This document shows positions 40,268 to 57,172 of a stretch of DNA of 64,000 nt, one piece after another. The number at the start of each line of letters is the position of its first letter. The stretch's first letter is position 1. Under the pieces are notes generated by a model. It did no database searches. It saw only the letters and a list, made by a program, of their open reading frames with translations, and had not been told where the DNA came from. The DNA is taken from the NCBI GenBank assembly GCA_043820105.1, contig JBDREC010000029.1:1-64000 (forward strand), given 5' to 3'. This DNA comes from Pseudomonadota bacterium. GTDB taxonomy: Bacteria > Bdellovibrionota_F > JAHFAK01 > JBDREC01. The translations under genes were made by a program, and so were the position numbers.

Positions 40268-40325
40268 AATTCTCTCCTTTAAAATACATAATGTTTTACA
40301 CTTTTTTTTATTGTTAGATTAAAAA

Positions 40326-40341
40326 TTCAAGTTCTGTGCCA
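40326..40341 (-). promoter_or_regulatory. Sigma-54-like promoter with -12 variant TTGAA
   Basis: TGGCACAGAACTTGAA. Confidence 0.6.
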
Positions 40342-40481
40342 AAACAGGCAGAATGAAAAAACATAAATAAAACAATTTGTTGCTGTGCAAGAGCGACGAA
40401 TCTTTTTTTCAAAAACAGGAGATTAAAGTGGGTGGCATTTTTTTAATCAAACGTTGGACGCCAGCTTTTACGAATTACGAG

Positions 40482-40538
40482 TTGACTTTTTTAATAAAAT
40501 TTATTAGAATGATGTGAAATAGTCGGTAAAATTCACAT
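40482..40538 (+). promoter_or_regulatory. Sigma-70 promoter followed by an inverted repeat (possible operator)
   Basis: TTGACT-N17-TAGAAT, then ATGTGAA-N13-TTCACAT. Confidence 0.55.
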
Positions 40539-40552
40539 TGATTTGGTGGAAA

Positions 40553-41701
40553 ATGAAAAGATTTTTAGATTTATCAAAATTGCTTTCTGAAAAATCCCAT
40601 TTCTTATTTGGACCCAGGGCTTCAGGAAAGAGTTTTTTGATAGATTTGCAATTAAAAAATGCCTGTCAAATTGTTAGTTTGCTTGATACTGATGTCTATT
40701 TGAAATTGTTAGAGCGGCCTTCATTGATTCGAGAAATGATAGCAGCTTCTGGCAAATCTAATATAGTAATAGATGAAATTCAAAGAATTCCTGAATTATT
40801 AAATGAAGTTCATTTGCTGACAGAAAAACAGGACTATCGTTTCTTGTTAACTGGATCCAGCGCCAGAAAACTTAAAAGAAGTAATGCAAACATGCTGGCT
40901 GGCCGTGCCAGAAAAGCTGAGCTTTTTCCATTTTCTATACAGGAATTAAAAGCCGAAGCTAAGTTTGATTTAAATAAATTGCTTTGTTTTGGCGGCCTGC
41001 CTCTTGTTTATCTTTCAAAGGACCCTTATCATGAATTGCGTGATTATATTGATACATATTTACAAGAAGAAATCAGAGTTGAAGCAGGTGTAAGGAACCT
41101 TGCAAACTTTTCGAGATTTTTAAAAGTTGCTGCTTTATCAAATGCTGAAATAATTAATTATTCTAAAATGGGTAATGATGCTCAGGTTCATGGAAATACT
41201 ATTAGGGAATATTTTCAGATTTTGCAGGATACACTCTTGGCTTTTATTGTAGAGCCATGGCAAATGTCAAAAAAGCGTAAAGCGGTTCAAACGGCCAAAT
41301 TTTATTTTTTTGATACTGGAATAGCTAATGCACTTATTAATTTAAATCAACTTACTCCAGGGACTTCAGTTTATGGAAAAGCGTTTGAGCAACTAATAGC
41401 CCTTGAGCTAAGGGCTTATAAAAGTTACTTGCGACTGGATGATGAAATCTGTTTTTGGCGGACCAAAAATCAACATGAAGTAGATTTTATAATAGGTGAT
41501 CATACTGCCATTGAAGTAAAGGCAAGCTCAATTGTTAGTCCAAGGGACCAAAAAAGTCTTTTAAAGTTAAAAGAAGAAGGAATCATTAAAAATTATTTTA
41601 TTGTAAGCAATGATCCTGTTTCAATGAAATTTGATTCCGGAATCCAGCATCTGCCTTTAAATGAATTTGTAAATCATCTTTGGGGAGGTCAAATATTTTA
41701 A
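40553..41701 (+). CDS. AAA_14 + DUF4143 ATPase (C-terminal PD-(D/E)xK-like domain)
   Basis: GPRASGKS, IDEIQ, TGSSAR, LAGR, GGLP, KFYFFDTG, EVDF, IEVK motifs. Confidence 0.92.
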   Translation: MKRFLDLSKLLSEKSHFLFGPRASGKSFLIDLQLKNACQIVSLLDTDVYLKLLERPSLIREMIAASGKSNIVIDEIQRIPELLNEVHLLTEKQDYRFLLTGSSARKLKRSNANMLAGRARKAELFPFSIQELKAEAKFDLNKLLCFGGLPLVYLSKDPYHELRDYIDTYLQEEIRVEAGVRNLANFSRFLKVAALSNAEIINYSKMGNDAQVHGNTIREYFQILQDTLLAFIVEPWQMSKKRKAVQTAKFYFFDTGIANALINLNQLTPGTSVYGKAFEQLIALELRAYKSYLRLDDEICFWRTKNQHEVDFIIGDHTAIEVKASSIVSPRDQKSLLKLKEEGIIKNYFIVSNDPVSMKFDSGIQHLPLNEFVNHLWGGQIF

Positions 41702-41707: not shown

Positions 41708-44700
41708 TTATTTTACAAATGTAACCGCAATATTAAGATTATCACCATGGCCTTCTGCATCCATTCTTCTTAAGGCTTCATCTCTTAGTAAATTAGTGGC
41801 TTCTTCTGCTGTTTTGGCTGGTTTTATTATTTGGGCGACTTCTTTTGGTTTTACAAAATCCCATAAACCGTCGGAGGCTTGCACAAGCACAGCACCTTGA
41901 AGCATATTTATCTCGTGGAAACCATAAGCACCTGGATCAGCCTTTGGTTTTAAGGCGCGAGTAACTACATGACCCCATAATCGTTCAATTTCAGGAGTTA
42001 TTTCTTCACCTCTTTCTTCAAAGCCAGTAAGCAAAGAATGATCCTTAGTTGCATATACAACTTTTGCATCATGAATAAGGACAGCCTTAGAATCTCCAAA
42101 CCAAAACAATTCAGCTACTAATTGTCCGGGATTTCTTTCATAAATTCTTGCAAGGGAGAGGCATACTCCAGAACTTGCACCTATTTCCCCTTGATTTAAT
42201 AAGGTGTTATATTCTCCGATAACAGAGTCAAATATTCTTGTAACTGATGCTTCAGTAATGCCTTCTACTTTTTTGAGTTCTTCCATAATTCTTTTTGGAA
42301 TCAAATCAATTGCAATTTTCATGGCTCTGTCACCACTTCCTCCGCCTCCCATTCCATCAACTGAAAGAACATAATATTCACTGGTAGTCGCTGCTTTCCT
42401 TCTTAATTTAAAAATAGCGACTCCATCTTCATTTGGCCCCAATTTTTTAGGTCTTGCTATATCAGATAAGGCATAGCTTTCGAGCTTACCGTTTGAGGTT
42501 CCAGCGCTAAATTCGCCAAAGGCTCCAGTTACCTTTACGCCAAAAGAACCCTTTGTATTACGAATATTTTCAGCTGCGTTTCCGGTCGGTTTTGGATGTG
42601 TTAAGGGTGGAGCAATAATTTTAATGCTTCTTTCAGTTATTAAAGGGTCTATTTTCCTGTCGTAAAGACCGATAATATCACCATCGTTCAAATGAAAAAC
42701 CAAACTATTTCTATCTACTGTTCTTAGGTTCTGTCCGGCTGTTAAAATAGCGATAGGAAATTTTGATTGATGAAACTCAACAAATAATTCGCCGGAAGCA
42801 TTTTTAAAAACCCGAATGCTTGCTGTAGCATCAAGAGTCGTATCCGTTCTTATGGCGATTGGAATAAGATTGAGCTGTGAATCATGTGTGAAATATAAAC
42901 TTTCTCCAGGGTTTAAATTTCTTATTAATTCAGAAGGATTTATCGCTCCTTCAAAGCTGCTTTTATAAAAAGAGATTTCTAAAAAGTTTTCTCGTTCTGT
43001 TTCTCTGTCTGATTTATAGACCCTGTCTCCCTGTGCAAGAGCTTTTTCACTTCCAGAAACTAAAATGAATTTTTTTCCAGTAGCATCAACTAACACAGCT
43101 GGTTTATTCAAGCATCTTAGCGTTAATCCAGTTTCAGATCTGTAAAGAATATAGCTTGGATCACCGCTGGTTAATTTGAAATTTTCATCTAGGCGATATG
43201 TAAGTCCAACATCTAATTCCATTATATTTTCAGGTGTTATTCTTCTGAATCTTGGAGCGATACGATCAAGTAAATTTTCAAACACCTTACTTCCATATAA
43301 TCTATCAGGTCTGGTTACCTGGCTTTTATCTTTTACAAAAACATGCTTGTTCCAAAAGAGGACTTCAGGAGAATCCGCTTTTACAGTATCAACTCCATAT
43401 TTTCCAATAATAGCTGGGAAAGCAGGGGCATTATCACCAGGAAAGATGGTTTTAACTTCCGGTTTTACTGTAGCAGTGTTTTTTTCAATTATTACTGTTA
43501 GCTTGTTTGTTGCAGAGGCTTTGGCAAAGGCCTGAGCATCTACATATGCAATGCTTGCATCTGGTTCGAATTTGAATTCCGGGTTTGTGGCGATTCCATC
43601 TTCACCTTTAATTACTTCAAATTTACCAGTTTCCTTATTAAAAGACATTTCAGGATACCATGTTCCCTGAACGCCGTCAGCTTCTCCACGCTTACCGCCC
43701 TCTATTCTTGCTTCTGTCAAAATAATAGTGTCAGGAAAATTTGCTTTAATTGCTTCAAGCGAGGCCACTTGTGAATGTCCAAGGACAATTCCGTGTGGCA
43801 TTTTCACTACTATTGTAAATTCAGCTCGTCCATGCTGGTCGTATTTTATTGTTTCTGGAAGATGGGAAATGGCAAAATCAACAACAGCTTGTGCATCAGC
43901 AAAAAGATCACGATTGAATTGAGACCCTGCTGTTTGGCCATCCATATGTCTTGCCAGATGCTCTTTAACAGAAGAAGTTTCAATTTCTGAACTTTTAAAG
44001 CTTGCTGCTTGTAGTTCAATTCTTCCATCTCCACGAGTACTGCTTCTGACTGGCTCTATTAGTATTGTTTCACTTCTTAAGCGTGCTTTGTCAGATTTTT
44101 TAGAAGGATTTTCTGGTCGCGATTCTTCCTGATATTCATGGTTACCATCAAGCCATGCAATAATTCTGTCACTAGTTAAAATATCTGTAGTCATTCTTAA
44201 TAATGCACTTTCACTGTTTTTCAAAATATTGTAATTACTTTGTCTGGTGAGCAGTTCCTCATGTATGGCCAGGGCTTCACTTAATATGCTTAATTCATCA
44301 GCTCTGTGAATTTCTGGTTTCATTTGTAATACTATTTCTACAATTTTTTCCCAGTTTCCAGATTCTTTGAAAATCCTTAATAATGTCTTCTGCCTTGATA
44401 AAGGAAGGGACTCAAAAAAAGCATGCTTTTGTTCATGTTTAAACAGTTCAAGTTTTTCCTGGTCTGAAAGTTTTTTAAATTCTTCTGTAAAATAAATTTT
44501 TCGCAAACTTCTGTCATAATAAGCTTTAGCATCAAAAGAGTAATCTTCATGCTGTCTGTCAAGCCTTTGATCCTTGCTTTCTAAATACATTGCACTTTCT
44601 GCTAAAGGGGGTTCCATAAACTTTCCAATAGTAGCTGTGGCCATATGAAGTGCATAAAAGTTTATAAAGTTCATTAAAACGTCATTCCAAAAGCCTTTAA

Positions 44701-46819
44701 AGCTTGTATCTCCATGAAAAAGACCTTCTTTTAGTTCATCATATAATGTAAAGCCAACAGCTTGTGAACCTATTTCCATATTCGTTTTAAGAAATTTTGA
44801 AATTCTTGTTAGTTCATTTACTACTCTTTGCTGTATTACCCACTTGCCAGAGTTTTTTGCTACAAACTCTCTTAATACTAGTTTTGATCCATCCGTAAAA
44901 AAGGATGAGTGATGCATCATTTTTCCAATTGTATTATTGAACCCAAAACCAATAGCTCCTGCTATCATAAACATTTCAAAATATTTATAATATTCTGAGG
45001 GCAGTGAAGAAAGCATCTGTAAAAAAGATTTTCCCTGAATCATGCCATCAACAGGTGCTTTAAAGGCTGTGAAAAAAGCTGTGAAAACAAGTGTTTTACT
45101 TAAACCCTGCAGGGCTGTCGTTCTTAGCAATGATTGTCTAACAACCGTGGTTCCAAGCTGGGCTGCTCTGGCTGCTTTATAAGTTTTAAAAACAAGGCTT
45201 ACTCCTGTTTTTGCAATTACGCCACCGCAATAAAAAAGAGCTGCTTCTATGATTATAGATTTTGAAAACTCAGCGACAGTTTGAAAAGTTTTTAAGTCCT
45301 TGGCAACTGAAGCCAGTGAAATGAATTTTTGCATGTTTTGCTTGGTCATTAGAGTTGAGTCTTTAAAAGATTCTGGGACACTTAGTTCTTTTGCAATAAT
45401 TGAGAAAATCTTATTTGAATATATATCTTCAGCTAGCGCATCAACATGGGCATCAAATTCTTCAGCACTTGGAAAAAAAGCTTTTTGTTTTAATAAAGTT
45501 TTTTTCGCCTTAGAAAAAGCGTCACTTAAGAGTTCTTCTCTTTTTGCTAATTCGATTTTTTCTTCATAAATGCTTATTACTGGATTAATTATTTCTTTTA
45601 ATACAGTTAAACCACCCTGTAATGCTCCAACTGAAAATCTTTGAGCAAATTCATCAAGTTTATTCCAGGTGCTATCAGTATCTTTTATTCTTCCAAATCT
45701 GTATTCTATTGCCTTGATAATTGCTTCAGCTGCCACTCCCTTCAGGGCTTTAACAGAGCCCCAGGCAATTTTTTCAAGATCTATATTAGCGTGATTTTTA
45801 TCAAAGTAGGTCATAAGGGCAAGATGCGCATCTTCATAGTATTTTGAAAAATCAATTGCATGTTTTACTCTTTTAACTGCAATGGGTTCAGTGTCTTCTG
45901 AGGTTTTTCCATATAGATTTGTCACTTCGGATCTGTCTGAATTAAGGTCATAGGCAATTTCATTTAGTGCCATTATTCTACTATTTGCAGCATGTTCATA
46001 TCCATTTGAAGCGTGCTTTGCTTCAATATAATCCATTTTTATCAGGCTTGCTAAAACAAGATTAACAGATTCTCTGGTTTTTTCTAAAAAATATGTTTCA
46101 AGGTTAGCTATCTGTTCATCAAGAAAGGCTCCGAACTCTGCTTCTTCACCATCTTTTAAAATACCCTTTGTCTGTTTCAGTCCTTTATATGAAGCATAAA
46201 AATCGCCATTTAAATAATCTGTGACAGCTTGATAATAGGTGGCGAACAATACTCTGCCTTCTTGCCTGTGTTTTTCTTTTTTTTGTTTGGCCTTCTCAAG
46301 GTTCTTTTGTTTTGCTATCTCAATAGCGGAAATTGCTTCTTCTTTGGCTTTTTGTGTTTCTTCATATTTATCAATAAGCTCATCTGCGTTGGAAGCAAGA
46401 ATCCAGGATGGAGAAAGTTCTTCCAAAATACTTGTAAAACCCATGAACCAGGATTGAGCTGTATTAATTTTATTTGCAAAAGTTCCCTTATCTGAACTAT
46501 CTATTTCCATGATGATTTTTGACAGCATATCTTTATTACTGGCTCTGTGGATTGAGAAATAAGCCTTTTTTGTGAATTCCCATTTGTTTGTTTTTTCTAA
46601 ACGATTTTTAAGCGTTTCATATCTTTTTTCATAATATCTTATTAATTCAATATCTCTTGATATTGCAGATTCTTCAATGCCAAGTGTTTGTGCTTTTAAT
46701 GACAGCTCATCACTTATAGCTGAAAAACTTTTTGAATATAGAATTTTGCATGGGATTAGAATGTAAATGAATGCAGCAAGTAATGTTAGTATATGGCAAT
46801 TAAATTTTTTCATAAACAT
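41708..46819 (-). CDS. Giant modular secreted protein ending in a PP2C-type phosphatase
   Basis: Signal peptide, helical region, hydrophobic segments, HEQKH, and C-terminal NED/DGMGG/GDS/DHS/SDGLWD/DN motifs. Confidence 0.85.
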   Translation of the reverse strand: MFMKKFNCHILTLLAAFIYILIPCKILYSKSFSAISDELSLKAQTLGIEESAISRDIELIRYYEKRYETLKNRLEKTNKWEFTKKAYFSIHRASNKDMLSKIIMEIDSSDKGTFANKINTAQSWFMGFTSILEELSPSWILASNADELIDKYEETQKAKEEAISAIEIAKQKNLEKAKQKKEKHRQEGRVLFATYYQAVTDYLNGDFYASYKGLKQTKGILKDGEEAEFGAFLDEQIANLETYFLEKTRESVNLVLASLIKMDYIEAKHASNGYEHAANSRIMALNEIAYDLNSDRSEVTNLYGKTSEDTEPIAVKRVKHAIDFSKYYEDAHLALMTYFDKNHANIDLEKIAWGSVKALKGVAAEAIIKAIEYRFGRIKDTDSTWNKLDEFAQRFSVGALQGGLTVLKEIINPVISIYEEKIELAKREELLSDAFSKAKKTLLKQKAFFPSAEEFDAHVDALAEDIYSNKIFSIIAKELSVPESFKDSTLMTKQNMQKFISLASVAKDLKTFQTVAEFSKSIIIEAALFYCGGVIAKTGVSLVFKTYKAARAAQLGTTVVRQSLLRTTALQGLSKTLVFTAFFTAFKAPVDGMIQGKSFLQMLSSLPSEYYKYFEMFMIAGAIGFGFNNTIGKMMHHSSFFTDGSKLVLREFVAKNSGKWVIQQRVVNELTRISKFLKTNMEIGSQAVGFTLYDELKEGLFHGDTSFKGFWNDVLMNFINFYALHMATATIGKFMEPPLAESAMYLESKDQRLDRQHEDYSFDAKAYYDRSLRKIYFTEEFKKLSDQEKLELFKHEQKHAFFESLPLSRQKTLLRIFKESGNWEKIVEIVLQMKPEIHRADELSILSEALAIHEELLTRQSNYNILKNSESALLRMTTDILTSDRIIAWLDGNHEYQEESRPENPSKKSDKARLRSETILIEPVRSSTRGDGRIELQAASFKSSEIETSSVKEHLARHMDGQTAGSQFNRDLFADAQAVVDFAISHLPETIKYDQHGRAEFTIVVKMPHGIVLGHSQVASLEAIKANFPDTIILTEARIEGGKRGEADGVQGTWYPEMSFNKETGKFEVIKGEDGIATNPEFKFEPDASIAYVDAQAFAKASATNKLTVIIEKNTATVKPEVKTIFPGDNAPAFPAIIGKYGVDTVKADSPEVLFWNKHVFVKDKSQVTRPDRLYGSKVFENLLDRIAPRFRRITPENIMELDVGLTYRLDENFKLTSGDPSYILYRSETGLTLRCLNKPAVLVDATGKKFILVSGSEKALAQGDRVYKSDRETERENFLEISFYKSSFEGAINPSELIRNLNPGESLYFTHDSQLNLIPIAIRTDTTLDATASIRVFKNASGELFVEFHQSKFPIAILTAGQNLRTVDRNSLVFHLNDGDIIGLYDRKIDPLITERSIKIIAPPLTHPKPTGNAAENIRNTKGSFGVKVTGAFGEFSAGTSNGKLESYALSDIARPKKLGPNEDGVAIFKLRRKAATTSEYYVLSVDGMGGGGSGDRAMKIAIDLIPKRIMEELKKVEGITEASVTRIFDSVIGEYNTLLNQGEIGASSGVCLSLARIYERNPGQLVAELFWFGDSKAVLIHDAKVVYATKDHSLLTGFEERGEEITPEIERLWGHVVTRALKPKADPGAYGFHEINMLQGAVLVQASDGLWDFVKPKEVAQIIKPAKTAEEATNLLRDEALRRMDAEGHGDNLNIAVTFVK

Positions 46820-46864
46820 AATCTCCTAAACATGAAAATATTTGTTTTAATTCCAAAAAATAGA

Positions 46865-46880
46865 TTCAATTTTCATGCCA
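46865..46880 (-). promoter_or_regulatory. Sigma-54-like promoter with -12 variant TTGAA
   Basis: TGGCATGAAAATTGAA. Confidence 0.6.
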
Positions 46881-47174
46881 AAAACGAAGAATTGATAATT
46901 GTCTTATAAATCATGTGGATATGATGCCTGTGAAGGCTGTCTTTTTTTCAAAAAGGGGAGGTTTTAATGAGAAGCTTTTTTGCTTTGGCAGGAAGGAAAT
47001 TTATTGTCAATAATTGAAAATTGATTGTTGAATCTTGCCTTTTTGTTGTGGAATATTGCTGTTTTTTTATTTGACGTTTTGCGGCAATTGTTTTATGAGA
47101 CTATTAATTATTTTCTAGCAATTAATGAAACTTTATATTATCAGATAGTTTAATTTTAAATTAAAGGGGGAAAA

Positions 47175-49565
47175 GTGCTTTTTAAAAAAACATTAATCGT
47201 ACTATATCTAATACTAATTTCATTGGCTTTATTTTCTTGCGGCATTACTGATTGGTTTTCAGGAGCTTCATTAGAAGACAGTGAAAATACCTCTGCTCTA
47301 TATAATCCAGATGAACTAACCTTTATGGAAATAGCTGGAGCAAGCCTTGGTATTCCTGCATCTACAATGTCTAATGAAATTGATGTAACAATGAGAGTGC
47401 ACAATGAAAACAATATTGATGTAAGTGTTGATGGAGCTGGCATTAAAGTTGAATATGATGAAGATGACGCTGAATTTGCAAAAGGGGTTGAAGTTCAATT
47501 CGGGGACGAGGAAGATGATTCTGAAGTTTCTGTTGAAGGAAGTATGTTTCTTTCCTTGGCGATTCCTGGCATGGGTCTTGATGGCTATGAAGATTCAGCT
47601 ATTCCAGGTGCTATACCTGGGGCAATACCAGGGGCTATTCCAGGAGCAATCCCTGGCGCAATTCCAGGAGCTATACCGGGTGCGATTCCTGGAGCTATCC
47701 CAGGAGCCATCCCAGCTTTTTATAAATTTACAACTGATGCTAGCTTTACAATGATGGCTTTTATTGTTTTAGTTGATGCCCAAGGTAACCTTATCTCAGG
47801 GCCATTTGACCTGGCCATGTACCTAACAGAAGATGAAGGATACATTGTTTTTATTATAACACCTGAATTGTTTGGAACAAGCATCTCAACAGGATCAAGG
47901 ATTTTCATATCATTATATGCAGTAGATGATACTGGAAACGGTATAACTTTAATAATTGAAACAGAAGAAGGTGAGGAAGAAGTGCTTTTGGGTTCTGGAG
48001 TTCTTGATGCTATTGAAGGTCAAGAAGTTCTAGAAACGGAAGCAGGAGATGGAGATGGCGACGGTGACGGAGAAGGTGATGGCGACGGTGATGGGGATGG
48101 AGATGGTGATGGTGATGGTGATGGAGATTTTGATCCGGATCCAGAGCCTACATTTCCTACATATTCCTGGAGCCAAGCTACTGGAGGTTCAGGCAACAAT
48201 GATGGAGCAATGGGCGTAACAGTTGATGCTTCTGGAAATTTAATTGTTGTCGGCTTTTTCGAAGGTTCCGCAGTTGACCTAGACCCAACAGATGGGACAG
48301 ATAATCACAACTCAAATGGAGGAAAAGATTTTTTTATAACAAAAATAAATTCTAATGGAACATATGCCTGGTCAAAATCTATTGGTGGTTATTATGATGA
48401 TATTGCCTATGATGTAGTTACAGATACTTCAGAAAACATTTATGTAACTGGAAATTTTTCCTCGTTTGATGGAGCTATAGATTTTAATCCAGATGGTGAG
48501 GCAGATTATAAATGGGCCATGGGAGACTCTGATGTATTTGTCACAAAAAGAAGTTCTGATGGATCCTATATCGATACTTATACTTATAATTATGATGCTT
48601 ACTCCTATTCATTAGGACTTGATATTGAGATAACATCTAGTGGTCAATTAATCATTTTAAGTGATCACAGCTCTGAAGGTTCACTGGTTGATCTTATAAG
48701 ACTTAATTCTTCTCTTGAATCGTTGTGTGAAAGCTCATATGCTTATTGGGGAGGTTTTAATTGGTGGTCAGGTCTAAATGAAAATCCAAATATCGCAATA
48801 ACTCTAGATTCTAGCGACAATCTGTATTTCACTGGATCTTTTTCATACTCCCAAGAATTTGACCCAATCAATGAAGGTTCATTTCTTACATCAAATGGCG
48901 GTGAGGATATCTTTATATCAAAACTTGAGATAGATGATATCAATTGTTTTAATGAACTTTGGACAGAGCAAATAGGTGGAACAGATGATGATTCCGCATC
49001 TGCTATAAAAGTTGATCCAAGTGGAAATGTTTATGTTGCAGGTCAATTTGCTTCAACTGATGTTAACTTTGACTTATATGGTGGCTCAGATCCTCACTCA
49101 TCTCTTGGCGGATCTTATTTTTCAGTTGATGCTTATTTGACAAGCTTTAACCCTGAAACTTCCACACATAACTGGACCAGGACTTGGGGTTCTGCTGAGG
49201 GTGATGAATATGTTGGAGGCATTTTTTATAATTCAAGTGGCCATATTTATACCACTGGTAATTTCGATGCTGATGCTGATTTTGATCCTGGTGCGCAGAT
49301 AGACCCTCATTTAACAAATGGTTCAAATGATATCTTCTTTAATAAAATAGGTGTTGATGGAAGCTATTATTGGACCTATACCTTTGGCGGTTTAGAATGT
49401 GATTACTCTTATGATATTACAATGTCTGGCGACACTTTGTATCATGGTGGAGAATATTATTCACCTTCAGTTGATTTTGATTTTACAGATGGTAATGATC
49501 CCATTACAAATGGAGATTTGGGATCTTATACTAACTTATGGTATCAGAAAACTGTGTTGGAGTAG
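47175..49565 (+). CDS. Acidic surface lipoprotein with AIPG and GD repeats and SBBP-like beta-propeller repeats
   Basis: LFSC lipobox; repeats such as VDASGNLIVVG, TDTSENIYVTG, VDPSGNVYVAG, DIFISK. Confidence 0.85.
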   Translation: MLFKKTLIVLYLILISLALFSCGITDWFSGASLEDSENTSALYNPDELTFMEIAGASLGIPASTMSNEIDVTMRVHNENNIDVSVDGAGIKVEYDEDDAEFAKGVEVQFGDEEDDSEVSVEGSMFLSLAIPGMGLDGYEDSAIPGAIPGAIPGAIPGAIPGAIPGAIPGAIPGAIPGAIPAFYKFTTDASFTMMAFIVLVDAQGNLISGPFDLAMYLTEDEGYIVFIITPELFGTSISTGSRIFISLYAVDDTGNGITLIIETEEGEEEVLLGSGVLDAIEGQEVLETEAGDGDGDGDGEGDGDGDGDGDGDGDGDGDFDPDPEPTFPTYSWSQATGGSGNNDGAMGVTVDASGNLIVVGFFEGSAVDLDPTDGTDNHNSNGGKDFFITKINSNGTYAWSKSIGGYYDDIAYDVVTDTSENIYVTGNFSSFDGAIDFNPDGEADYKWAMGDSDVFVTKRSSDGSYIDTYTYNYDAYSYSLGLDIEITSSGQLIILSDHSSEGSLVDLIRLNSSLESLCESSYAYWGGFNWWSGLNENPNIAITLDSSDNLYFTGSFSYSQEFDPINEGSFLTSNGGEDIFISKLEIDDINCFNELWTEQIGGTDDDSASAIKVDPSGNVYVAGQFASTDVNFDLYGGSDPHSSLGGSYFSVDAYLTSFNPETSTHNWTRTWGSAEGDEYVGGIFYNSSGHIYTTGNFDADADFDPGAQIDPHLTNGSNDIFFNKIGVDGSYYWTYTFGGLECDYSYDITMSGDTLYHGGEYYSPSVDFDFTDGNDPITNGDLGSYTNLWYQKTVLE
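47598..47717 (+). repeat. Intragenic (AIPG)9-AIPA repeat
   Basis: Ten 12-bp units, each with a different DNA sequence. Confidence 0.95.
48045..48128 (+). repeat. Intragenic Gly-Asp dipeptide repeat linker
   Basis: GDGDGDGDGEGDGD... in the translation. Confidence 0.9.
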
Positions 49566-49573
49566 AGTGTAAG

Positions 49574-49628
49574 TGCTGGTTGCTAGATACTCGATGCTAG
49601 ATGCTTGATGCTTGATGCTCGATGCTGG
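49574..49628. repeat. GATGCT(A/C/T) heptamer array
   Basis: gatactc gatgcta gatgctt gatgctt gatgctc gatgctg; reverse copy near 27360-27377. Confidence 0.8.
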
Positions 49629-49815
49629 TGAATTTTAGTTTTCCTTTTTAATCCCTATTTTCCATAAAAGCTCAAAAGCTCTTTTAAAAGTACCACGTCA
49701 CTTTTAAATTCTTAACTCTTTCAAAAAAATAGATTTTTTTCTTTTTTTTGGAATTTGGAAAAATAAAGCCTTCAAACATCCAGATAAGCTACTGAAATTA
49801 TAGAAGACGCATTTC

Positions 49816-49831
49816 TGGCATTTGTTTTGCA
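49816..49831 (+). promoter_or_regulatory. Sigma-54 promoter of the RAYT-like gene
   Basis: TGGCATTTGTTTTGCA, 16 nt before the ATG. Confidence 0.75.
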
Positions 49832-49847
49832 TTAGCTAGCTTTTATT

Positions 49848-50480
49848 ATGGCTAGAAGAAAAACCCCAAAATCATTACAAACAGTACACATTACGAAAAG
49901 GTGTATTAATCGCCAATATTTATTGAATCCAAAAGAAAATTGGAATGAGATTGTATCTTGGCTCAACTGCCTTCATCTTTTTTTTAATATCTTACTTCAT
50001 CATGTCCTTGTGCTTGGAAATCACCTTCATATTATTTGCACACCTATGGAAGATAATATTGGAAATGCTATGGGTTACACTTTTAGTAATTTAGCAAGAT
50101 ACTTAAATTATAAAAATAATAGAATAAACCAAATATTTGGAACTAGATATTTCCCTACAGTAATAAAAGATGATGAGCATTTGATAACTACGATTAGATA
50201 TCTTTATCAAAATCCCCTTAGAGCTGGCATAATTAATAATCCTTTTTCTTATAAATACTCAAGTTTAGGTTTCTATTTTGGCTGTAATAGTGATGGATTA
50301 ATAGTCACTCCAGATAATGTAACAAATTCCTTAATTAGAAAAGATCAATATGGCTTTGATACCTTTGAAAAATTGATCCAAGATCAGCTATTAGAAGAAA
50401 ATCTATCAAAAATAAGAAAGGCTCTTAGAAAATCTGAATTTAAGTTTAATCAAGATTATTATGAAAATTCAAAAAAGTGA
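49848..50480 (+). CDS. REP-associated tyrosine transposase-like protein (Y1 HUH)
   Basis: HITKRCINR, GNHLH (HUH), RYLYQNPLRAG (catalytic Tyr), YKYSS. Confidence 0.88.
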   Translation: MARRKTPKSLQTVHITKRCINRQYLLNPKENWNEIVSWLNCLHLFFNILLHHVLVLGNHLHIICTPMEDNIGNAMGYTFSNLARYLNYKNNRINQIFGTRYFPTVIKDDEHLITTIRYLYQNPLRAGIINNPFSYKYSSLGFYFGCNSDGLIVTPDNVTNSLIRKDQYGFDTFEKLIQDQLLEENLSKIRKALRKSEFKFNQDYYENSKK

Positions 50481-50514
50481 CGTGGTACTTTTACTTGAGG
50501 AGAAAATAACCATC

Positions 50515-50925
50515 ATGCAAGAAGAAGTTGGGGAAAAGACAAATGAAATTCCAGTGCTGCAAAAGGCAATAAAAACAATGGATCTTAAAGGTAAAATAGT
50601 AACAGCCGATGCTTTACATACATAAGCAGAAACAGCGAGAGTCATAGTTAAGGAAAAAAAAGGAGATTATGTTTTTACAGTCAAAGAGAATCAAGAAACT
50701 TTATATAATAAATTAAAAGGGATCAGATTTCGATTCTTTTCCCCCCAGAGGATAGTTATAGATCGATCCAGGATACGAACAGGATCAGGCCCAAGAGTGA
50801 TGGCTACATTAAGAAATTTAATCATAGGATTATTGCGCATAGCTGGATTAAAAAACATTGCAAGTAGTTTAAGATATTTTGCGTGGTCAGGTTCCGAAGA
50901 AGTGTTAAAATTTCTTCAATTGTAA
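50515..50925 (+). pseudogene. ISAs1-family transposase remnant
   Basis: EKTNEIP...GKIVTADALHT*AETA...[11 protein letters not shown] joined in frame to [23 protein letters not shown] at 50623-50625; 5' part and an internal segment missing. Confidence 0.85.
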
Positions 50926-51215
50926 ATTAAGTATATCAATAGCTGCTTTCAGCAATATCTAGTCGAAAATCACACTATATCTATGTCTAATATGAGCTTA
51001 ACATCTATTAAATGCTTGTATTTTCTGGTTTCTAGAACATTATTGCCTTGTTTGTTTCGAAAATATGCCAATTTTATAGATGCATCAAGTTATTCTTGGC
51101 GAAAACCGTCGTGACTTTGACTGAATCGTGTTAAGGTTATTAAAAGCATTTAAATTGCTTGACGTAATACTAATATTATTACTAGATTTTTGCCTTTATA
51201 GAATTTAAAGAAAAA

Positions 51216-51494
51216 ATGGAAAAGTTAATGGATCTAATTGAAAAATTGGTTGAAGGCTTATTTTGGCTTTTAATAGCTGCATCTCCTGCTTTAATAGGCG
51301 CAATCATTGGAGGAATTTTTTACATTAAATTTAATGGAAATCTTACCTCAATAATCCTCTTTACTATGTTTGTAATAATGGGTGCTATAGTAGGTGGTTT
51401 TTGGGCAGAAAAAGTTAGAAAAAAACATGGAACATCTAAATTTTATTCAAAAGTAATAGCAACTCCTGAACTTGATAAAGAAGAGAATAACTAA
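51216..51494 (+). CDS. Small two-TM membrane protein
   Basis: 92 aa with two Gly-rich hydrophobic helices. Confidence 0.75.
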   Translation: MEKLMDLIEKLVEGLFWLLIAASPALIGAIIGGIFYIKFNGNLTSIILFTMFVIMGAIVGGFWAEKVRKKHGTSKFYSKVIATPELDKEENN

Positions 51495-51610
51495 AGAGTA
51501 TTCATTATCTTATAAATTTTTGCTAGTTTTACTGCTATATTAAACATAAAAACCAAAACCCAAGCAAGCTAACCGTTTGCAATTACTAACACTTTCAAAC
51601 TCTAACAATA

Positions 51611-51626
51611 TGGCACAAGTTTTGCT
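51611..51626 (+). promoter_or_regulatory. Sigma-54 promoter of the 1812-aa gene
   Basis: TGGCACAAGTTTTGCT, consensus match. Confidence 0.85.
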
Positions 51627-51638
51627 CATACATTAAGC

Positions 51639-54600
51639 ATGGCAAAAAAACGCAGGATACAGAAACTATTTTTATCTTATCTTTTAAAATTACTTCTAGT
51701 CTTTTGCCTTTTCCATGCTTCATTTATTAGCTCTTTTGAAAATCAAGAGAATCTCAGGGAAAAAATCATTGAAAAATATAGATCGAACAAAAGCCAAACT
51801 TGTACTGAATTTGTAGATTTAGCAAGAGAAAATCCTAAAAAGGCTGCATATCTTTTGAATCTTTTACTTAAAAATCGAGAAAGTTATGTGATTGCAGGAC
51901 ATTTATCTCAGCATTTAAATGATAACAATCAAGAAATCTTTATAACCCTCATTTCTGCAAATGAACAAAATGGTCAAAAAGCTGAACTAGCACTTGCCCA
52001 ATCTATGCAAATCTATACAAAAAGGAAAGATGCAAGTGGCGGCTTATTACTTTTAGAAACACAAGAACAGTACAAAAGAAATGACTTTAAAAAAATCGCT
52101 GAAAATCATGACAGTAAAGAAGCACTTTCAAGCCAAGATTTAATCGAATATATTGAAGGCATTTCATTAACAAAAGATAGAGAAGAAAAAATAGCTTTAG
52201 CTGCTCAAGTTATAACAGAGGAATTAAAAAGATGCAGTTTTGCCAGGAACACAAATAAAAATGAGCTTGGCCTATTTACTAAGCAACTTTATCGAGCAAC
52301 CCTCCTATTAGATGATTTCTCAAACACACTAAACTATGATTCAGCAAACTTGCTTTACAAAATATTAAACTTAGATAAGTCATTAGGTCTTCAAATAATA
52401 AAACAATTACCAGATTTTTCAATTTCTCAAAATAAAACCCGTGAAATGATTTCCAACTTAAGAAATATTTTAGGTGCTGATAGCTATTTTAGAAATGTTT
52501 ATGACGAGCTTTCCTCAGATGTTCAAAACTTTATTGAAGATGAATCGCAACAATTCGTTAGTTCAGGTATATCAAAAGTAGAAATATCTAAAATAAGATC
52601 AAAACTTGATTCATTTTTTGGATCAATCCCAGCATTAAACAAAAGCAAGTATTCTCATATTAGTTTAAGACTTGAACAGATTTTAAACAAACTAGAATTT
52701 GAAAACCTAGATAAAGGTTCAGTCAAAGACTTACTGGCTGAAGCTTCAAAATGGATTCTGGGACTGGAAATTGCCTCTTTAGCAAATCAAAGACAATACA
52801 ACTCTAGCTATTTTAATTCTCTAAGCGAATCAAGAGAGTTTACAGCTGAAACAGAAGAAGCCCTAGGTTATTTAAAAGAACGAATGTCTGGCTGCTTTAA
52901 TATTTTGGATAAAGCAGAAGCCTTATTCTTTGATGATGAAATAGAAATGGCAACAGCGATTTTTCAATTTGGTGTATCAGCACTTTCACTTGTTCAGCAA
53001 AGCATTGAAATAGAAGAATTGCTAGATAGAGCCAGAAAACATAAAAACAAAACCCCTAACACAAGCCAGACCTTTGAGAGGCTTACAAAAGCAAGAGATA
53101 GTATTCAAGAAGCTTTTTTCTCATTAATTTTAGCAAATGAAGATTCTGAAATAGCTAAGGCAGAAGCCTTATTGAAAAAAGCTGAGGGATTATATGAATC
53201 TTCTGTTGAAAAAATACACTCAACAATAGCCGGAACAATTCAAGATGTTGGCTGGCGTGAAATCGAAATCTATGAAAGTCTCAAACAAGGCACATATGAA
53301 ACAGCAAAATTCGTTGTCACCACAGGAATGATGGTTGCTTTATTTTCTGTTGCTGGAACAATTGGTTCAATAGCTGGAACTGTTGCTGCATCAGCCATAA
53401 TACCAATTTCCACAACAGCTGCTGGCATTACAAATATAATAGTTGCTTTAGGCGTTGAATCCCTAATTTTCTTGATCGGTCACAAGAGTATTGAAGCCCT
53501 GACAATTTTCACAGAAGATCTTTTGGCAGGAAGAGGACTTGCTCATTCGCCACTAGAAGTAATTCCTCAAAGCACTGAAGCCTTTGCCTGGGAATATGCT
53601 TCAACTGTAGTTAGTTTAGGCGTTTTAAAAGCATTTAATCATGCTGGTCGCCTTGCAATGCAAAAGGGTTTACTAACAAACAATGCCATAGGCCATGGAG
53701 CTACTATCCTTTTTGAAATGTCTGGAATGGGCATGGGGGGCGTAGCTGTTCAAACAATGATGTTTGCTATAGGTGATGAACCGGTAGTATTAATGAGAAA
53801 CGGAAAACCCATTCAAGCCATGGCTTTATCTGACATTTTATCTACAGATAACATATATTCTTCAATAAAAGGTTCTTTTGGAACTGTAATAAGCTTTAGA
53901 ATTGGAAGCTTTTTGGCAAGGCCCTTAATTCAAAGGATAACCTTGCCATTTCATTTGGCCATGGCTCATGAAAGACTTAGAAACTTAGATGCTCAGATGG
54001 ACAGGCAGAGAAAAAAACTAGAAAAAATCACAGATACAAGAGAAAGACTAGCTCTTGAGGCCATAATAAATGCAAATGAAAAAGTAACTTTAGAAAACAT
54101 TATCCTTGAATTAATAAAGGGCGGAGAAGCAAACAATGAAGCTCTAAAAATTGCAAGAGAAGCATACGCAAGATGTGTTGCCTTTGAGATGCTGATTACC
54201 AAAGGAAATCTGGCCACAGAACCCGTAAGATTAAGTATTTCTGAAGCCGGAGAAGTGTTTTTAAAATTAGGCAATTTCAAGTTTAAAATAAATGCTGCAG
54301 TAAACGGTGAATATTACGTTCTTGATCATTTGGTTCCTCCTGTTGCAATTCATAAAGATGCACTCGTTGAAATGGCGAACATTTCAAAAGAAGGTATTAT
54401 TAAGGAAAGTGAAATTCCTTATTTGCAGCTTGGAAGGATGGTTGATGGAAATTTAATTATAGATCAAACCATAAAACCTGATACTGCTTCTGGAAAAGTA
54501 ATATCAGTTGGTGATGGTACAAAAACAAATCTATTATATGATGCAATTAGCGCTTATCAGCAGAATTCTGCTTTAAGAAATGATGCTGTTTTGATGATCA

Positions 54601-57077
54601 GAGAATATTTTGGTGAAGGCACTGATACTAACCTTATATTGGAAGCTGAAGCCTTAAGTGGCCCTGATTCAGCTTATATTTTGCCAAGATTTCATGACAG
54701 AGCTAATATCAAAAAAGCAGAAGGGCAAATTATAATTGAAGGTCATAATCACAGAGTAACAGACGCTAAACCTAGCCCAGCTGATTTTAAGGCCCGTGGA
54801 CTTGGTGAAACAGCAATAGTTTCTTTGTGGAACTTTTCAGTTGGGACCTTATCTTTTAAACCTTTTGGGGGTTTGGCTACAGAACCATCGGGCGCGTATC
54901 GAGGCGGCGTCAGTATTGAAGCCAGAGACCAATTCATTAAAGATTCCCTTGTAAATTTAAACTCAGGGAGAAGCATTCAAATTGTGGGAGATGGCCCGCA
55001 AGAAAGAGTTGCCCAAATAAAAAAATTATCAAGAGGAATCTATGCACTAGTTCCTTGCCAGGCGGAAGTGAATATTTACAGTTCATCCGGCAAGCATCAT
55101 TTTATTATTAAAAATGGAAAGGTTGAAACATACGATAAGAGTGGAAAATTGCTTTATGTCCAGATTAGTGGCAGTTTTATTCTTGAAACCGGATATAAAA
55201 TCCAAATGCCGGATGGAAGCTTTGTGACTTTCAGTAGACCGGAATTAGCGATTGATGATGTCGTTACAATTAAGGGATCTTCTGAAAAACATGTTATAGT
55301 TGAAGTACAGGAAACAAGGCAGAAAGCAATTGTAAGACCCGATGTTCCAGGTTTTGACCCAACAAGTCATGAGGCAGTTTATAGACATGTGCCTCTTGCT
55401 GAAATAAAAAGAACATATCCTTATATTGAAATTGAAGGAGCAAAAAGGGATTCCTTATGGATAGGAAGAAACACGGTAATTGGTGGGATTGATTTCAGAC
55501 ACAACTATATAAGTGTCAATCATGCCAGAATATTTTTTTATGAAGGACAATATTCTATTTATGACCAGGGATCCACCAATGGAACTTTTATTCGCAGCCA
55601 CGGGGAATATGACTTCCGAGAAGTCCCCAGACACCCCCCAACAGTACTCAAACCAGGAGATCAGTTAAAATTATCAAGGTTTGGGGAGATTTTTGAAGTA
55701 CCTCCTGATATTTACAGGGGAGAAACCAATTGGGAAAGATCAGATAGTGTCCAAAAACAACCAGTTGTTCCTAAACGTCAGGAGGACAATGGATTTCTAA
55801 GTATTGGGGAACTTCAAGGGCAAGCGGATGCATTCTGGGAGGGGTATAGGTCTAGCAAGACTGTAGTGCACCAGATAGGGATTGACGCCCAATTGGTTAT
55901 GCAGACAGAACTTAATACCTTCGAAGGAATTAGTTTAGGTGATATTGTTTATGTGCAAAGGCCAACTGGAGGAGTAGTGGAGTCTGGCTGGGAAGTAATA
56001 TTTATCTCAAGTACCGGAAAAATGACAGTTAGAAAGCTGGTTGCTTTTAATCGCAATGGTAATGTTGTTTTTAGAAGAGCCAAGAAAGGGGAAAGAGTTG
56101 AAGAAATTTCAAATTTATCTGTTAATCAAAACCTTTGGATTTCAGATGTTATAGAAGGAGCAGCGGGTGACGGACGCACTCAATTATTGGCTATACATCC
56201 TGCAGCGGCTCATGCCAGAAGAAGATATAAAATTGAAAGTGATCAAGCAGGAGATGTGCAAATTCCTATTGCCAGAGCCAGGGAATTGTTTCTGGTAGCT
56301 CCAACACAAGCAAGAGTTGGCAACTGCTATCTGATAGCAGCCTTTAACGCAATGATGGCTGATCCAAACTTTTTGTCAACAATCGCCTTTTCAATTAAAG
56401 AACTTCCCAATGGTGATTTTATTGTCAAAATTCCTCTTGGTTCATCATCCGGACACGCTGTTTATGTAAGCAGACGCGATATTCAGAGTCAGTGGAACAG
56501 TAATTATTTAGGCCCTAAAAGGGGTCATGAATTTAGAAGAGACTTGAGAGAAGCTCTTGATCCGCCAAGTGGAAGCACAGGTTGGAAGGTGCTTGAAGCT
56601 GCATATATGAAGGAATTAATTGGAGAAGTTGATAGAGCCAGAATTGAAGGTGGCTATGGGCACAGGGCATTAGAATTATTTTTTGGAAATAATTTTGTAA
56701 ATAAAATTTATATTGGTTCCTCAAGACAGGCTCTGGCAGAATCCGGATATACAAGAGATGATACTCTACGGTTTTTAAATAACTTTAACAACTCAAGAAC
56801 CATTGCAACTGTTAATACTAGATCAGCTCCTTCTGGCAAGCGAAACCATCAGGGTGATCAAGAAGATGACAGTTCAATATATTTTGAGGTTGGGGGACAT
56901 GAACTTGTTTATAGACATGCCTATGCTATTAAAAAGGTCGACAGACATAGTCAAAGAGTTATTGTTATTAACCCTCACAGACCAGAAGTTGAGATGGAAA
57001 TGAGCTTTACGGATTTCATGCTTGCTTTTTCTGACATTTCAGCAGGTGAAATAAAATTTGAAAATCTCCTAAGATAA
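51639..57077 (+). CDS. Giant modular secreted protein: JAMM/MPN + FHA + calpain-like (C2) cysteine protease
   Basis: Signal peptide; hydrophobic helices; HNHRVTDAKPSPAD; IGR..ISVNHA..DQGSTNGT; QARVGNCYLIAA...HAY...INP. Confidence 0.85.
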   Translation: MAKKRRIQKLFLSYLLKLLLVFCLFHASFISSFENQENLREKIIEKYRSNKSQTCTEFVDLARENPKKAAYLLNLLLKNRESYVIAGHLSQHLNDNNQEIFITLISANEQNGQKAELALAQSMQIYTKRKDASGGLLLLETQEQYKRNDFKKIAENHDSKEALSSQDLIEYIEGISLTKDREEKIALAAQVITEELKRCSFARNTNKNELGLFTKQLYRATLLLDDFSNTLNYDSANLLYKILNLDKSLGLQIIKQLPDFSISQNKTREMISNLRNILGADSYFRNVYDELSSDVQNFIEDESQQFVSSGISKVEISKIRSKLDSFFGSIPALNKSKYSHISLRLEQILNKLEFENLDKGSVKDLLAEASKWILGLEIASLANQRQYNSSYFNSLSESREFTAETEEALGYLKERMSGCFNILDKAEALFFDDEIEMATAIFQFGVSALSLVQQSIEIEELLDRARKHKNKTPNTSQTFERLTKARDSIQEAFFSLILANEDSEIAKAEALLKKAEGLYESSVEKIHSTIAGTIQDVGWREIEIYESLKQGTYETAKFVVTTGMMVALFSVAGTIGSIAGTVAASAIIPISTTAAGITNIIVALGVESLIFLIGHKSIEALTIFTEDLLAGRGLAHSPLEVIPQSTEAFAWEYASTVVSLGVLKAFNHAGRLAMQKGLLTNNAIGHGATILFEMSGMGMGGVAVQTMMFAIGDEPVVLMRNGKPIQAMALSDILSTDNIYSSIKGSFGTVISFRIGSFLARPLIQRITLPFHLAMAHERLRNLDAQMDRQRKKLEKITDTRERLALEAIINANEKVTLENIILELIKGGEANNEALKIAREAYARCVAFEMLITKGNLATEPVRLSISEAGEVFLKLGNFKFKINAAVNGEYYVLDHLVPPVAIHKDALVEMANISKEGIIKESEIPYLQLGRMVDGNLIIDQTIKPDTASGKVISVGDGTKTNLLYDAISAYQQNSALRNDAVLMIREYFGEGTDTNLILEAEALSGPDSAYILPRFHDRANIKKAEGQIIIEGHNHRVTDAKPSPADFKARGLGETAIVSLWNFSVGTLSFKPFGGLATEPSGAYRGGVSIEARDQFIKDSLVNLNSGRSIQIVGDGPQERVAQIKKLSRGIYALVPCQAEVNIYSSSGKHHFIIKNGKVETYDKSGKLLYVQISGSFILETGYKIQMPDGSFVTFSRPELAIDDVVTIKGSSEKHVIVEVQETRQKAIVRPDVPGFDPTSHEAVYRHVPLAEIKRTYPYIEIEGAKRDSLWIGRNTVIGGIDFRHNYISVNHARIFFYEGQYSIYDQGSTNGTFIRSHGEYDFREVPRHPPTVLKPGDQLKLSRFGEIFEVPPDIYRGETNWERSDSVQKQPVVPKRQEDNGFLSIGELQGQADAFWEGYRSSKTVVHQIGIDAQLVMQTELNTFEGISLGDIVYVQRPTGGVVESGWEVIFISSTGKMTVRKLVAFNRNGNVVFRRAKKGERVEEISNLSVNQNLWISDVIEGAAGDGRTQLLAIHPAAAHARRRYKIESDQAGDVQIPIARARELFLVAPTQARVGNCYLIAAFNAMMADPNFLSTIAFSIKELPNGDFIVKIPLGSSSGHAVYVSRRDIQSQWNSNYLGPKRGHEFRRDLREALDPPSGSTGWKVLEAAYMKELIGEVDRARIEGGYGHRALELFFGNNFVNKIYIGSSRQALAESGYTRDDTLRFLNNFNNSRTIATVNTRSAPSGKRNHQGDQEDDSSIYFEVGGHELVYRHAYAIKKVDRHSQRVIVINPHRPEVEMEMSFTDFMLAFSDISAGEIKFENLLR

Positions 57078-57172
57078 ATAATTAGACAATAATTTTAAAA
57101 TTCATAATTTCAACTTGATTTGTATTTTTAAAAACAATATTTTTTTTCATGTTTGAAAAGAGAAATAAATTT

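Follow-up and report, generated by a model that had tools for sequence, protein, structure and literature searches.

In which cell, and on which side of a membrane, do the enzymes of two giant bacterial proteins work when each protein begins with an export signal and ends with domains of a cytoplasmic type? The question is raised by a stretch of 64,000 nucleotides (nt) from an uncultured Pseudomonadota bacterium (positions 1 to 64,000 of contig JBDREC010000029.1, assembly GCA_043820105.1), referred to below as the window. A first-pass annotation of this DNA had singled out two giant open reading frames (ORFs) of 1703 and 1812 amino acids (aa) and had seen in them a candidate family of multi-enzyme effectors with a common chassis and a supposed MARTX-like delivery into prey or host cells. 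Both ORFs exist where it had placed them; we call them A1 and B1. According to our analysis, A1 and B1 represent two unrelated families of three copies each, and their likeness is one of design and not of descent. Within each family, the N-terminal part of the protein (the chassis) is conserved and the C-terminal modules are swapped. As for function, we lean tentatively, with a little less than even confidence, toward transmembrane phospho-signaling enzymes whose cargo stays in the cytoplasm of the producer.

Two families of one design

The window is contig C29 of an assembly of 3.81 Mb in 113 contigs (~33% G+C, 92.9% complete). The two genes and the parts of their chassis are as follows.

41708..46819, minus strand: A1 gene, 1703 aa, family A; paralogs A2 (contig C63) and A3 (C10)
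46730..46819, minus strand: A1 residues 1–30, signal-peptide or signal-anchor-like N-terminus, read from the sequence
45266..46729, minus strand: A1 residues 31–518, charged N-domain poor in Pro and Gly, retained by A2 and A3, without a Pfam family
44615..45265, minus strand: A1 residues 519–735, conserved block of five moderately hydrophobic helices
51639..57077, plus strand: B1 gene, 1812 aa, family B; paralogs B2 (C1) and B3 (C88); metagenome relatives P0010 and P0011/P0012
51639..51728, plus strand: B1 residues 1–30, signal-peptide or signal-anchor-like N-terminus, n-region with six K/R
51729..53306, plus strand: B1 residues 31–556, all-helical N-domain (AlphaFold2 model)
53307..53924, plus strand: B1 residues 557–762, most conserved part of the family, hairpin 558–615 and further Gly-rich helices
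53925..54218, plus strand: B1 residues 763–860, long helices, coiled-coil-like linker after the block (model)

The common chassis assumed in the first-pass annotation was not found. BLASTP revealed no similarity between A1 and B1 (best E value 0.16), and in hhalign the alignments of the two chassis reached a probability of 0.8%, and the blocks alone 0.3%. The proposed chassis-plus-cassette architecture holds within each family and not across the two: paralogs with conserved N-termini and swapped C-termini are present in the genome itself and among two metagenome relatives of family B.

In family A, residues 1–740 are common to the copies (64% and 35% identity). Along its whole sequence, A2 shares 62% identity with A1; A3 (1261 aa), 35% identical over the chassis, is devoid of ~600 residues of the middle cargo and keeps the PP2C phosphatase domain alone. 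In family B, B2 (1536 aa; ~34% identical over the chassis) combines a pair of FHA domains with a calpain-like end but lacks JAB, and B3 (1657 aa; ~31% identical) has the JAB region followed by a different tail. P0010 and P0012 resemble the B1 chassis from approximately residue 140 to 800 and diverge thereafter. The tail of P0012 contains a JAB-like H-T-H stretch (seen by eye and unaligned with the B1 motif) and then long pentapeptide repeats (NCBIfam E 2e-38), which also match the PipB/PipB2 effector models; the tail of P0010 comprises 1200 residues with no family match. The five members of family B thus end in JAB, FHA and calpain-like modules; in two FHA and a calpain-like module; in JAB and a weakly EndoU-like tail; in pentapeptide repeats; and in a 1200-residue region without a family. 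The hydrophobic block is the best-conserved part in both families. Since the chassis of the paralogs have diverged to 30–35% identity, with no near-identical N-termini and no sharp switch point, the swapping cannot be taken for a recent exchange of cassettes.

Both proteins begin as the first-pass annotation had described, with a basic n-region and a hydrophobic segment of 15–20 residues, and signal-like N-termini were found in all six copies of the source genome (A1–A3 and B1–B3). Mean Kyte–Doolittle values of at least 2.0 over 19 residues occur in the N-terminal segments of A1 and B1 and in the B1 block, and nowhere else in these proteins. The ~500 residues of charged helices proposed to follow were recovered in B1 as an all-helical AlphaFold2 model of residues 1–555, with a mean predicted local distance difference test (pLDDT) score of 67.8 and values of 70–90 over ~130–530; for A1 they are indicated by composition (30% D/E/K/R, 1% Pro, 3.5% Gly). 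The Gly/Ala-rich hydrophobic block is clear in B1 (25.8% G+A, against 15.2% in the whole protein) and weak in A1, in which no 19-residue window reaches 1.6 and the G+A content is 17.1%, against 14.9% overall. Residues 558–615 of B1 form a 58-residue helical hairpin, uncharged apart from the conserved E607; the conserved charged residues within the hydrophobic helices of the B1 block are E607, K664, E693, and R754, two acidic and two basic.

Neither chassis has a Pfam model or a recognizable fold, and both represent new protein families. Pfam searches with the six blocks of families A and B gave nothing under an E value of 0.1, and profile searches of the PDB with the A and B blocks gave no match. 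The AlphaFold2 model of B1 residues 1–860 has a pLDDT of 29–50 in the hairpin; Foldseek found no match to it at E ≤ 0.001 (template modeling (TM) score ≤ 0.14), and the best VIA-align hits (Z 10) were designed or generic helical bundles, under the noise level of the tool for helical models; these results do not demonstrate a new fold. For the blocks, the language-model atlas offered two leads, to a PT-TG cluster (score 0.83) and to one associated with RHS (0.86), both below 0.9, the level from which chance matches become uncommon.

At least two more unrelated families of giant proteins in the genome repeat the design, and local hhalign probabilities among the chassis of A, B, and these two did not exceed 7.1%. 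The first is represented by a 1106-aa protein on contig C106 (584–3904, plus strand) with a signal, a helical domain, approximately five hydrophobic helices, a pair of FHA domains, and, at the C-terminus, a cysteine-peptidase-like module. The second, family C, is a pair of proteins of 1155 aa (window positions 20838–24305, minus strand) and 1233 aa (L004 1280–4981, minus strand; two genes downstream of B3). These are 24–30% identical to each other and possess a signal and a Gly-rich hydrophobic hairpin near residue 300; no Pfam family was recognized in them.

Cargo modules

The cargo regions of A1 and B1 are located as follows.

42443..44614, minus strand: A1 residues 736–1459, cargo without a recognized fold, common to A2 and mostly missing from A3
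41711..42442, minus strand: A1 residues 1460–1703, PP2C phosphatase domain
54456..54938, plus strand: B1 residues 940–1100, putative RadC-like JAB/JAMM domain, shared with B3 (motif and weak profile match)
55461..55673, plus strand: B1 residues 1275–1345, FHA domain (Pfam)
56256..57074, plus strand: B1 residues 1540–1812, candidate calpain-like (papain-fold) cysteine peptidase, shared with B2

The C-terminus of A1 is a PP2C/PPM phosphatase domain, as profile, fold, and aspartate motifs all indicate. The Pfam match exceeds its cut-off (25.5 bits against 20.3; E 1.2e-05), a phmmer search of the PDB gave E 8e-06, and residues 1463–1697 match the Stp1-type NCBIfam model with E 5e-17, under the cut-off of that equivalog. 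In the AlphaFold2 model of residues 900–1703 (mean pLDDT 46.6), the PP2C part alone reaches 70–90 and is usable; Foldseek assigned it to tPphA (E 2.5e-11, TM score 0.70–0.74 on the target) and also to PstP (E ~1e-10). The motifs NEDG (1463), DGMG (1488), SDGLWD (1649), and GDN (1692), which we take to be the metal-binding site, retain their aspartates in A2 and A3, and the domain is found in all three copies of family A.

The FHA domain of B1 is equally solid in sequence comparison: 40.3 bits against a Pfam cut-off of 20.7 (E 4.3e-10), an hhalign probability of 98.2% against the FHA set of the same genome, and the motifs GR (1276), SVNH (1292), and NGT (1314). The PP2C and FHA assignments of the first-pass annotation were thereby confirmed. 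FHA-like domains in A1 at 1180–1400 were considered and rejected (hhalign probability 2–5%, against 98% for the control), and a nuclease-like module common to A1 at ~930–1170 and the C-terminus of B3, both of which contain KTIFP, found no support (BLASTP E 0.71).

The JAMM-type domain proposed for B1 found support, though not proof, as a RadC-like JAB domain at ~940–1100. Residues 1036–1049 present the HxHx7Sx2D motif (HNHRVTDAKPSPAD), the same pattern occurs in B3, and the best PDB match of a two-sequence profile of B1 and B3, aligned across the motif, was the RadC homolog 2qlc (E 0.0021, 21 bits); no match was obtained in Pfam or NCBIfam. For the calpain-type end, the Pfam Peptidase_C2 match (18.0 bits, E 0.0017, 31 residues around the Cys) lies under the cut-off of 23.8, and the PDB profile search returned nothing at E values up to 10. 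What speaks for this candidate are the Cys, His, and Asn of GNC (1561), RHAY (1759), and INPH (1777), which are kept in B2 and which may form a catalytic triad in papain order. The C-terminus of B3 matches EndoU_bacteria below the cut-off (E 0.006) and has no relevant match in the PDB. The catalytic motifs of the PP2C, JAB, and cysteine-peptidase modules are conserved between paralogs of 30–42% identity, which would argue that the modules are active.

The calpain-like module was also seen on a 706-aa exported protein without the hydrophobic block (C10 46618–48738, plus strand; 20% identity, E 1.5e-04), and part of it in a 232-aa ORF (C102 21814–22512, minus strand).

Promoters and the putative regulon

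The sigma-54-type sites noted before both genes are confirmed, with a difference in form: that of B1 is exact, and that of A1 deviates at two positions but lies within a conserved composite promoter.

46865..46880, minus strand: sigma-54-like –24/–12 site of A1, TGGCAT-N5-TTGAA, two mismatches to the consensus; same form before A2
46940..46953, minus strand: upstream element of the composite promoter, TTTTGAAAAAAAGA, 59 nt before the A1 sigma-54-like site
51611..51626, plus strand: exact sigma-54 consensus TGGCAC-N5-TTGCT, its end 13 nt upstream of the B1 start codon

The genome contains 69 exact sigma-54 consensus sites. The composite promoter, in which TTTTGAAAAAAAGA is followed after 57–60 nt (59 in 14 cases) by a –24/–12 element with TTGC (13) or TTGA (9) in its –12 part, occurs 22 times; ten other spacer bins gave 0–1 occurrences each, and five shuffled genomes none. 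The upstream element is probably the site of one enhancer-binding protein. A1, A2, A3, and B2 are situated behind composite promoters; B1 and B3 have a sigma-54 site without the upstream element. With the end of its –12 element 13 nt from the ATG, B1 would be transcribed into an mRNA that has little or no leader and could not accommodate a ribosome-binding site.

Judged by eye, the first ORFs behind the composite promoters have signal-, lipoprotein-, or prepilin-like starts in 18 of 22 cases; the other four are doubtful ORFs of 47–56 aa. A Pfam scan of ten of the products gave three above the cut-off (FG-GAP repeats, a MopE-type motif, or TrAA12-like parts), three with matches below it only, and four with none. 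The promoters are clustered, with seven in ~24 kb of C1 and four on C63, and the remaining contigs are C10, C12, and C90. The common promoter places at least B2 and family A in a single regulon of envelope proteins, and under either of the functional readings discussed below this rigid sigma-54 promoter defines a regulon.

Two further exact sigma-54 sites lie downstream of B1. One (57337–57352, minus strand) faces the gap of 260 nt behind the B1 stop codon, where no ORF of at least 80 aa exists; it could drive a small RNA or an antisense transcript. The other (58199–58214, plus strand) precedes the gene of a 642-aa exported protein at 58388. No intrinsic terminator was found in 56900–58400.

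Topology and possible functions

Topology was assessed from hydropathy and charge counts, which conflict between models. In the explanation that we tentatively prefer, a Sec-type signal or anchor would place the ~500-residue helical domain of both A and B proteins outside the cytoplasmic membrane, and the conserved hydrophobic block would span the membrane in an odd number of passes. Next would come a helical linker and then the interchangeable modules, working in the cytoplasm of the producer itself. The outer domain might sense or bind something, the FHA modules could dock on proteins threonine-phosphorylated by the many Ser/Thr kinases of the genome, and the attached PP2C, cysteine peptidase, or JAB hydrolase would act on the docked targets. 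If the cargo is cytoplasmic, these would be unusually large, modular transmembrane enzymes in which docking through FHA is linked to a phosphatase, peptidase, or JAB output.

The recurring cargo fits such a role: PP2C is present in all three family A copies, and FHA domains occur in B1 (one), B2 (two), and the C106 giant (two). Since the genome has 15 Pkinase matches above the cut-off and 19 FHA matches, phospho-threonine partners exist in the producer. The connecting loops of the A1 block, 545–572 and 633–680, are strongly basic; throughout family A, the loop after helix 1 carries 5–7 K/R and no D/E (3/3 copies), and the loop 633–680 carries 8–9 K/R. According to the positive-inside rule, basic loops face the cytoplasm, and the region after helix 1 would therefore be cytoplasmic. 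Along the family B block, the loops change from uncharged to acidic, then to slightly basic, again to acidic, and finally to basic, which fits a multi-pass domain that ends inside, and the long helices modeled after the B1 block resemble receptor linkers. The topology that the first-pass annotation had named as one that would refute its view, ordinary inner-membrane proteins with their enzymes in the producer's cytoplasm, thus appears at least as likely as the delivery that it favored, as far as charge distribution and domain types can tell.

Several observations weigh against our preferred explanation. P0010 has a non-hydrophobic N-terminus, and a stop 13 codons upstream of its ATG closes the frame; being without a signal, it would, with an odd number of passes, be inverted relative to B1–B3. 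(P0012 has a hydrophobic N-terminus only if an upstream TTG is its start.) Within the B block, nothing but a two-helix hairpin is free of charge, and the proposed fifth pass, 744–762, contains 1–4 K/R. On an approximate free-energy scale, the internal segments of the B block lie at +1.0 to +2.8 kcal/mol, which is marginal, and on the same scale no family A segment reaches ≤3 kcal/mol except one at 2.5 in A2. The composite promoter otherwise precedes genes of exported proteins. Moreover, a constant N-terminus joined to varying C-termini is what toxins show and sensors do not, and RadC-like JAB domains, the weak EndoU match, and pentapeptide repeats are of kinds that recur in toxins and effectors.

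These features suggest another scenario, in which A1 and B1 are exported carriers: the signal peptide would take the whole protein across the inner membrane, its marginally hydrophobic hairpin would remain tucked away until a target membrane is reached and then insert there, and the C-terminal enzymes (PP2C, FHA-peptidase, JAB, perhaps EndoU) would enter a prey or host cell in the manner of CNF or PMT toxins. We consider it credible, if probably not the correct one. The CNF/PMT-type toxins have an N-terminal region of ~500 residues with twin hydrophobic helices, which delivers unrelated C-terminal catalytic cargo; the helix pair is flanked by acidic residues and the cargo differs among members that share an N-terminus (PMC3717775). 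CNF1, CNF2, CNFy, PMT, and DNT therefore offer the same single-chain layout. A and B proteins differ from them in showing no sequence or fold match, in their Sec-type signals, longer hydrophobic block, and helical linkers, in carrying several modules in a row (including FHA and PP2C), and in having no known host.

Much in the present data is consistent with such carriers. Signal-like N-termini are universal among the six copies, the 58-residue helix-loop-helix of the B block is followed by an acidic stretch, and a hairpin, which keeps the N-domain and the cargo on the same side, is the sole arrangement that fits both the signal-bearing B1–B3 and the signal-less P0010. The chassis stays constant while the cargo is exchanged across the five family B members, and the cargo includes toxin- or effector-type modules (RadC-like JAB, EndoU with E 0.006, and pentapeptide repeats). 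The marginal hydrophobicity has a parallel in injected effectors, the transmembrane segments of which sit just below the hydrophobicity for inner-membrane targeting (PMC6110835). Type III/IV transmembrane effectors and translocators have the same one or two moderately hydrophobic helices, but they are devoid of Sec signals and need dedicated machines and chaperones, none of which were seen beside the A and B genes. The genome-wide searches for secretion genes covered the type VI secretion (T6SS) sheath and secretin families; they revealed four secretin genes, which, like the export-like starts of 18 of the 22 ORFs behind the composite promoter, favor export.

Against the carriers, FHA and PP2C have no known role outside a cytoplasm, and in family A the basic loops suit a location in the cytoplasm. 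No immunity, secretion, chaperone, or processing-protease gene adjoins the copies examined, the EndoU and calpain matches fall under the curated cut-offs, no fold match to toxin translocation domains was obtained, and a route across the outer membrane would still have to be explained. If the proteins are exported after all, they would represent a new way to carry several enzymes across a foreign membrane and might indicate that a poorly known phylum-level group lives as a predator or in association with a host. A broader version, in which at least four unrelated carrier chassis (A, B, C, and that of the C106 giant), each with a Sec signal, a long helical domain, and a marginally hydrophobic block that enters a foreign membrane, deliver strings of cytoplasm-type enzymes (PP2C, FHA-guided peptidases, RadC-like JAB, perhaps EndoU) into prey or host, are co-switched by sigma-54, and constitute a new class of single-chain, multi-cargo proteins, we regard as rather unlikely.

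It is improbable that the proteins are structural or scaffold components of the surface or periplasm, made under a sigma-54 program for adhesion, development, or a predation apparatus, with modules used mainly for binding. They share the composite promoter with FG-GAP-repeat and MopE-motif proteins, lipoproteins, and a pilin-like gene, and their long helical domains and restriction to a single lineage would suit such a role; the catalytic motifs retained between paralogs of 30–42% identity argue for activity instead.

The remaining comparison concerns polymorphic and MARTX-type toxins. The polymorphic toxins (Zhang et al., 2012, PMC3482391) combine, like A1 and B1, an export signal, a conserved middle, and variable C-terminal enzymes, and RadC-like JAB is among the toxin domains listed in that survey. 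In the 300,000 characters of its text that were searched, FHA appears only as an intracellular signaling domain, PP2C and calpain are not mentioned, and neither FHA nor PP2C is among the toxin modules (PMC3482391). A and B proteins differ in the absence of an adjacent immunity gene, of a known pre-toxin or repeat domain, and of a sharp recombination point; no co-directional small gene follows A1, B1, or B2, and a search of the 93%-complete genome for a T6SS sheath gene gave no match. The two leads of the atlas, PT-TG and RHS-associated (both below 0.9), point in the direction of these toxins, whereas Pfam detected no RHS, RTX, filamentous-haemagglutinin, PAAR, VgrG, LXG, or Peptidase_C80 domain (whole proteins at E ≤ 0.1, and segments).

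With MARTX toxins, A1 and B1 have in common the very large size and several enzyme modules in series. Their enzymes are C-terminal, after the hydrophobic block, and not between repeat regions as in the MARTX layout, and Pfam matched neither RTX-type repeats nor the autoprocessing cysteine protease (whole proteins at E ≤ 0.1, segments at E ≤ 10). The MARTX-like delivery of the first-pass annotation was thus not borne out, neither these features nor an immunity gene nor adjacent secretion genes having been seen. Classical polymorphic or MARTX-type toxins with immunity proteins, serving contact-dependent or secreted antagonism, are accordingly the least probable of the explanations, despite variable C-termini on conserved N-termini.

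The closest relatives in function of the transmembrane phospho-signaling enzymes that we prefer would be other membrane-anchored PP2C and FHA proteins. Mycobacterial PstP, FhaB/FipA, plant KAPP, and SpoIIE are such proteins and work with Ser/Thr kinases. The PP2C model of A1 matches the structure of PstP, and the FHA domain of B1 weakly matches the FhaB/FipA model. Compared with PstP- and KAPP-type proteins, A1 and B1 are 4–7 times larger, with an outer helical domain of 500 residues, a multi-helix block that is conserved but belongs to no known family, and additional JAB and calpain-like hydrolases.

Distribution

The lineage is thinly sampled, with four species genomes in the collection searched, and the closest RpoB records, 59–66% identical, bear the titles of delta-proteobacterial groups (among them Myxococcales, Geobacter, Binatia, and Bdellovibrio-type lineages). 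None of 40 other genomes (two of the same order and one of the same class) has the B chassis. An exhaustive HMMER search with the B block in 1.84 billion representatives, a library from which B2 is absent, returned four proteins: B1, B3, P0010 (2219 aa), and P0011 (1626 aa). P0010 scores 279 bits over the block and is a clear relative. The loci of P0010 (L008) and of P0012 (L009), a cluster-mate of P0011, were located by a pattern scan of metagenome contigs; the G+C content of these loci, ~46–47%, indicates that they come from a different organism than the source genome.

A word-based search of 5.8 billion proteins with the whole of A1 and B1 returned only the queries and A2, which is weak evidence of rarity because it missed the 30–35% identical paralogs of the same genome. 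The same type of search with the A block, at longer lengths, gave nothing beyond its own three copies, and a pattern scan for family A in 185,579 species genomes yielded no relative among 455 pattern matches; word- and pattern-based searches thus found no family A member outside the source genome. Families A and B appear to be confined to one lineage.

Neighboring genes

Two genes stand immediately downstream of A1.

40538..41701, plus strand: AAA_14/DUF4143 ATPase gene, convergent with A1, ends 6 nt away
39206..40414, minus strand: gene of a 353-aa exported Cys-containing protein with its own composite promoter (element 40401–40414, sigma-54-like site 40326–40341)

The next gene after A1 is therefore a convergent ATPase gene, in agreement with the earlier remark that no immunity gene follows the 1703-aa ORF, and no cognate immunity gene was found immediately 3′ on the same strand after A1, B1, B2, or B3. 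After B1 comes a DUF1761 gene in convergent orientation, after B2 another promoter with an ABC-transporter operon, and after B3 the gene of a 474-aa exported helical protein, which is not a typical immunity protein. A conserved partner after the B genes was considered and rejected, the 642-aa and 474-aa neighbors being unrelated. Nor do secretion, chaperone, or processing-protease genes lie beside any copy examined. A paralog of the 353-aa exported protein adjoins A2 on C63.

An AAA_14/DUF4143 ATPase gene also lies ~1 kb after the C106 giant (~5224–5718), and an ORF that resembles it by eye (L008 16287–17495, minus strand) lies ~0.9 kb after P0010. With 23 DUF4143 matches in the genome, this adjacency may be due to chance, yet it seems more frequent than expected.

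Divergent from A1, at 47175–49565 (plus strand), is the gene of an exported protein of 796 aa that contains a run of ten GAIP repeats, an extended Gly-Asp stretch, and beta-propeller repeats of the SBBP type. The operon downstream of B2 (L003 676–5739, minus strand) has its own composite promoter and encodes, as judged by eye, an outer-membrane-like protein, an ABC ATPase, two FtsX-type permeases, and a LolA-like protein.

The kinases of the genome include seven paralogous proteins of 1950–1990 aa, with similar N-termini and a Ser/Thr kinase domain near residues 250–500.

C10 95034–100931: giant kinase paralog
C27 6575–12445: giant kinase paralog
C64 45370–51255: giant kinase paralog
C88 7397–13243: giant kinase paralog
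C90 52148–58075: giant kinase paralog
C90 167680–173559: giant kinase paralog
C49 19581–25541: giant kinase paralog

One of these giant kinase genes is situated ~1.5 kb upstream of the A3 locus.

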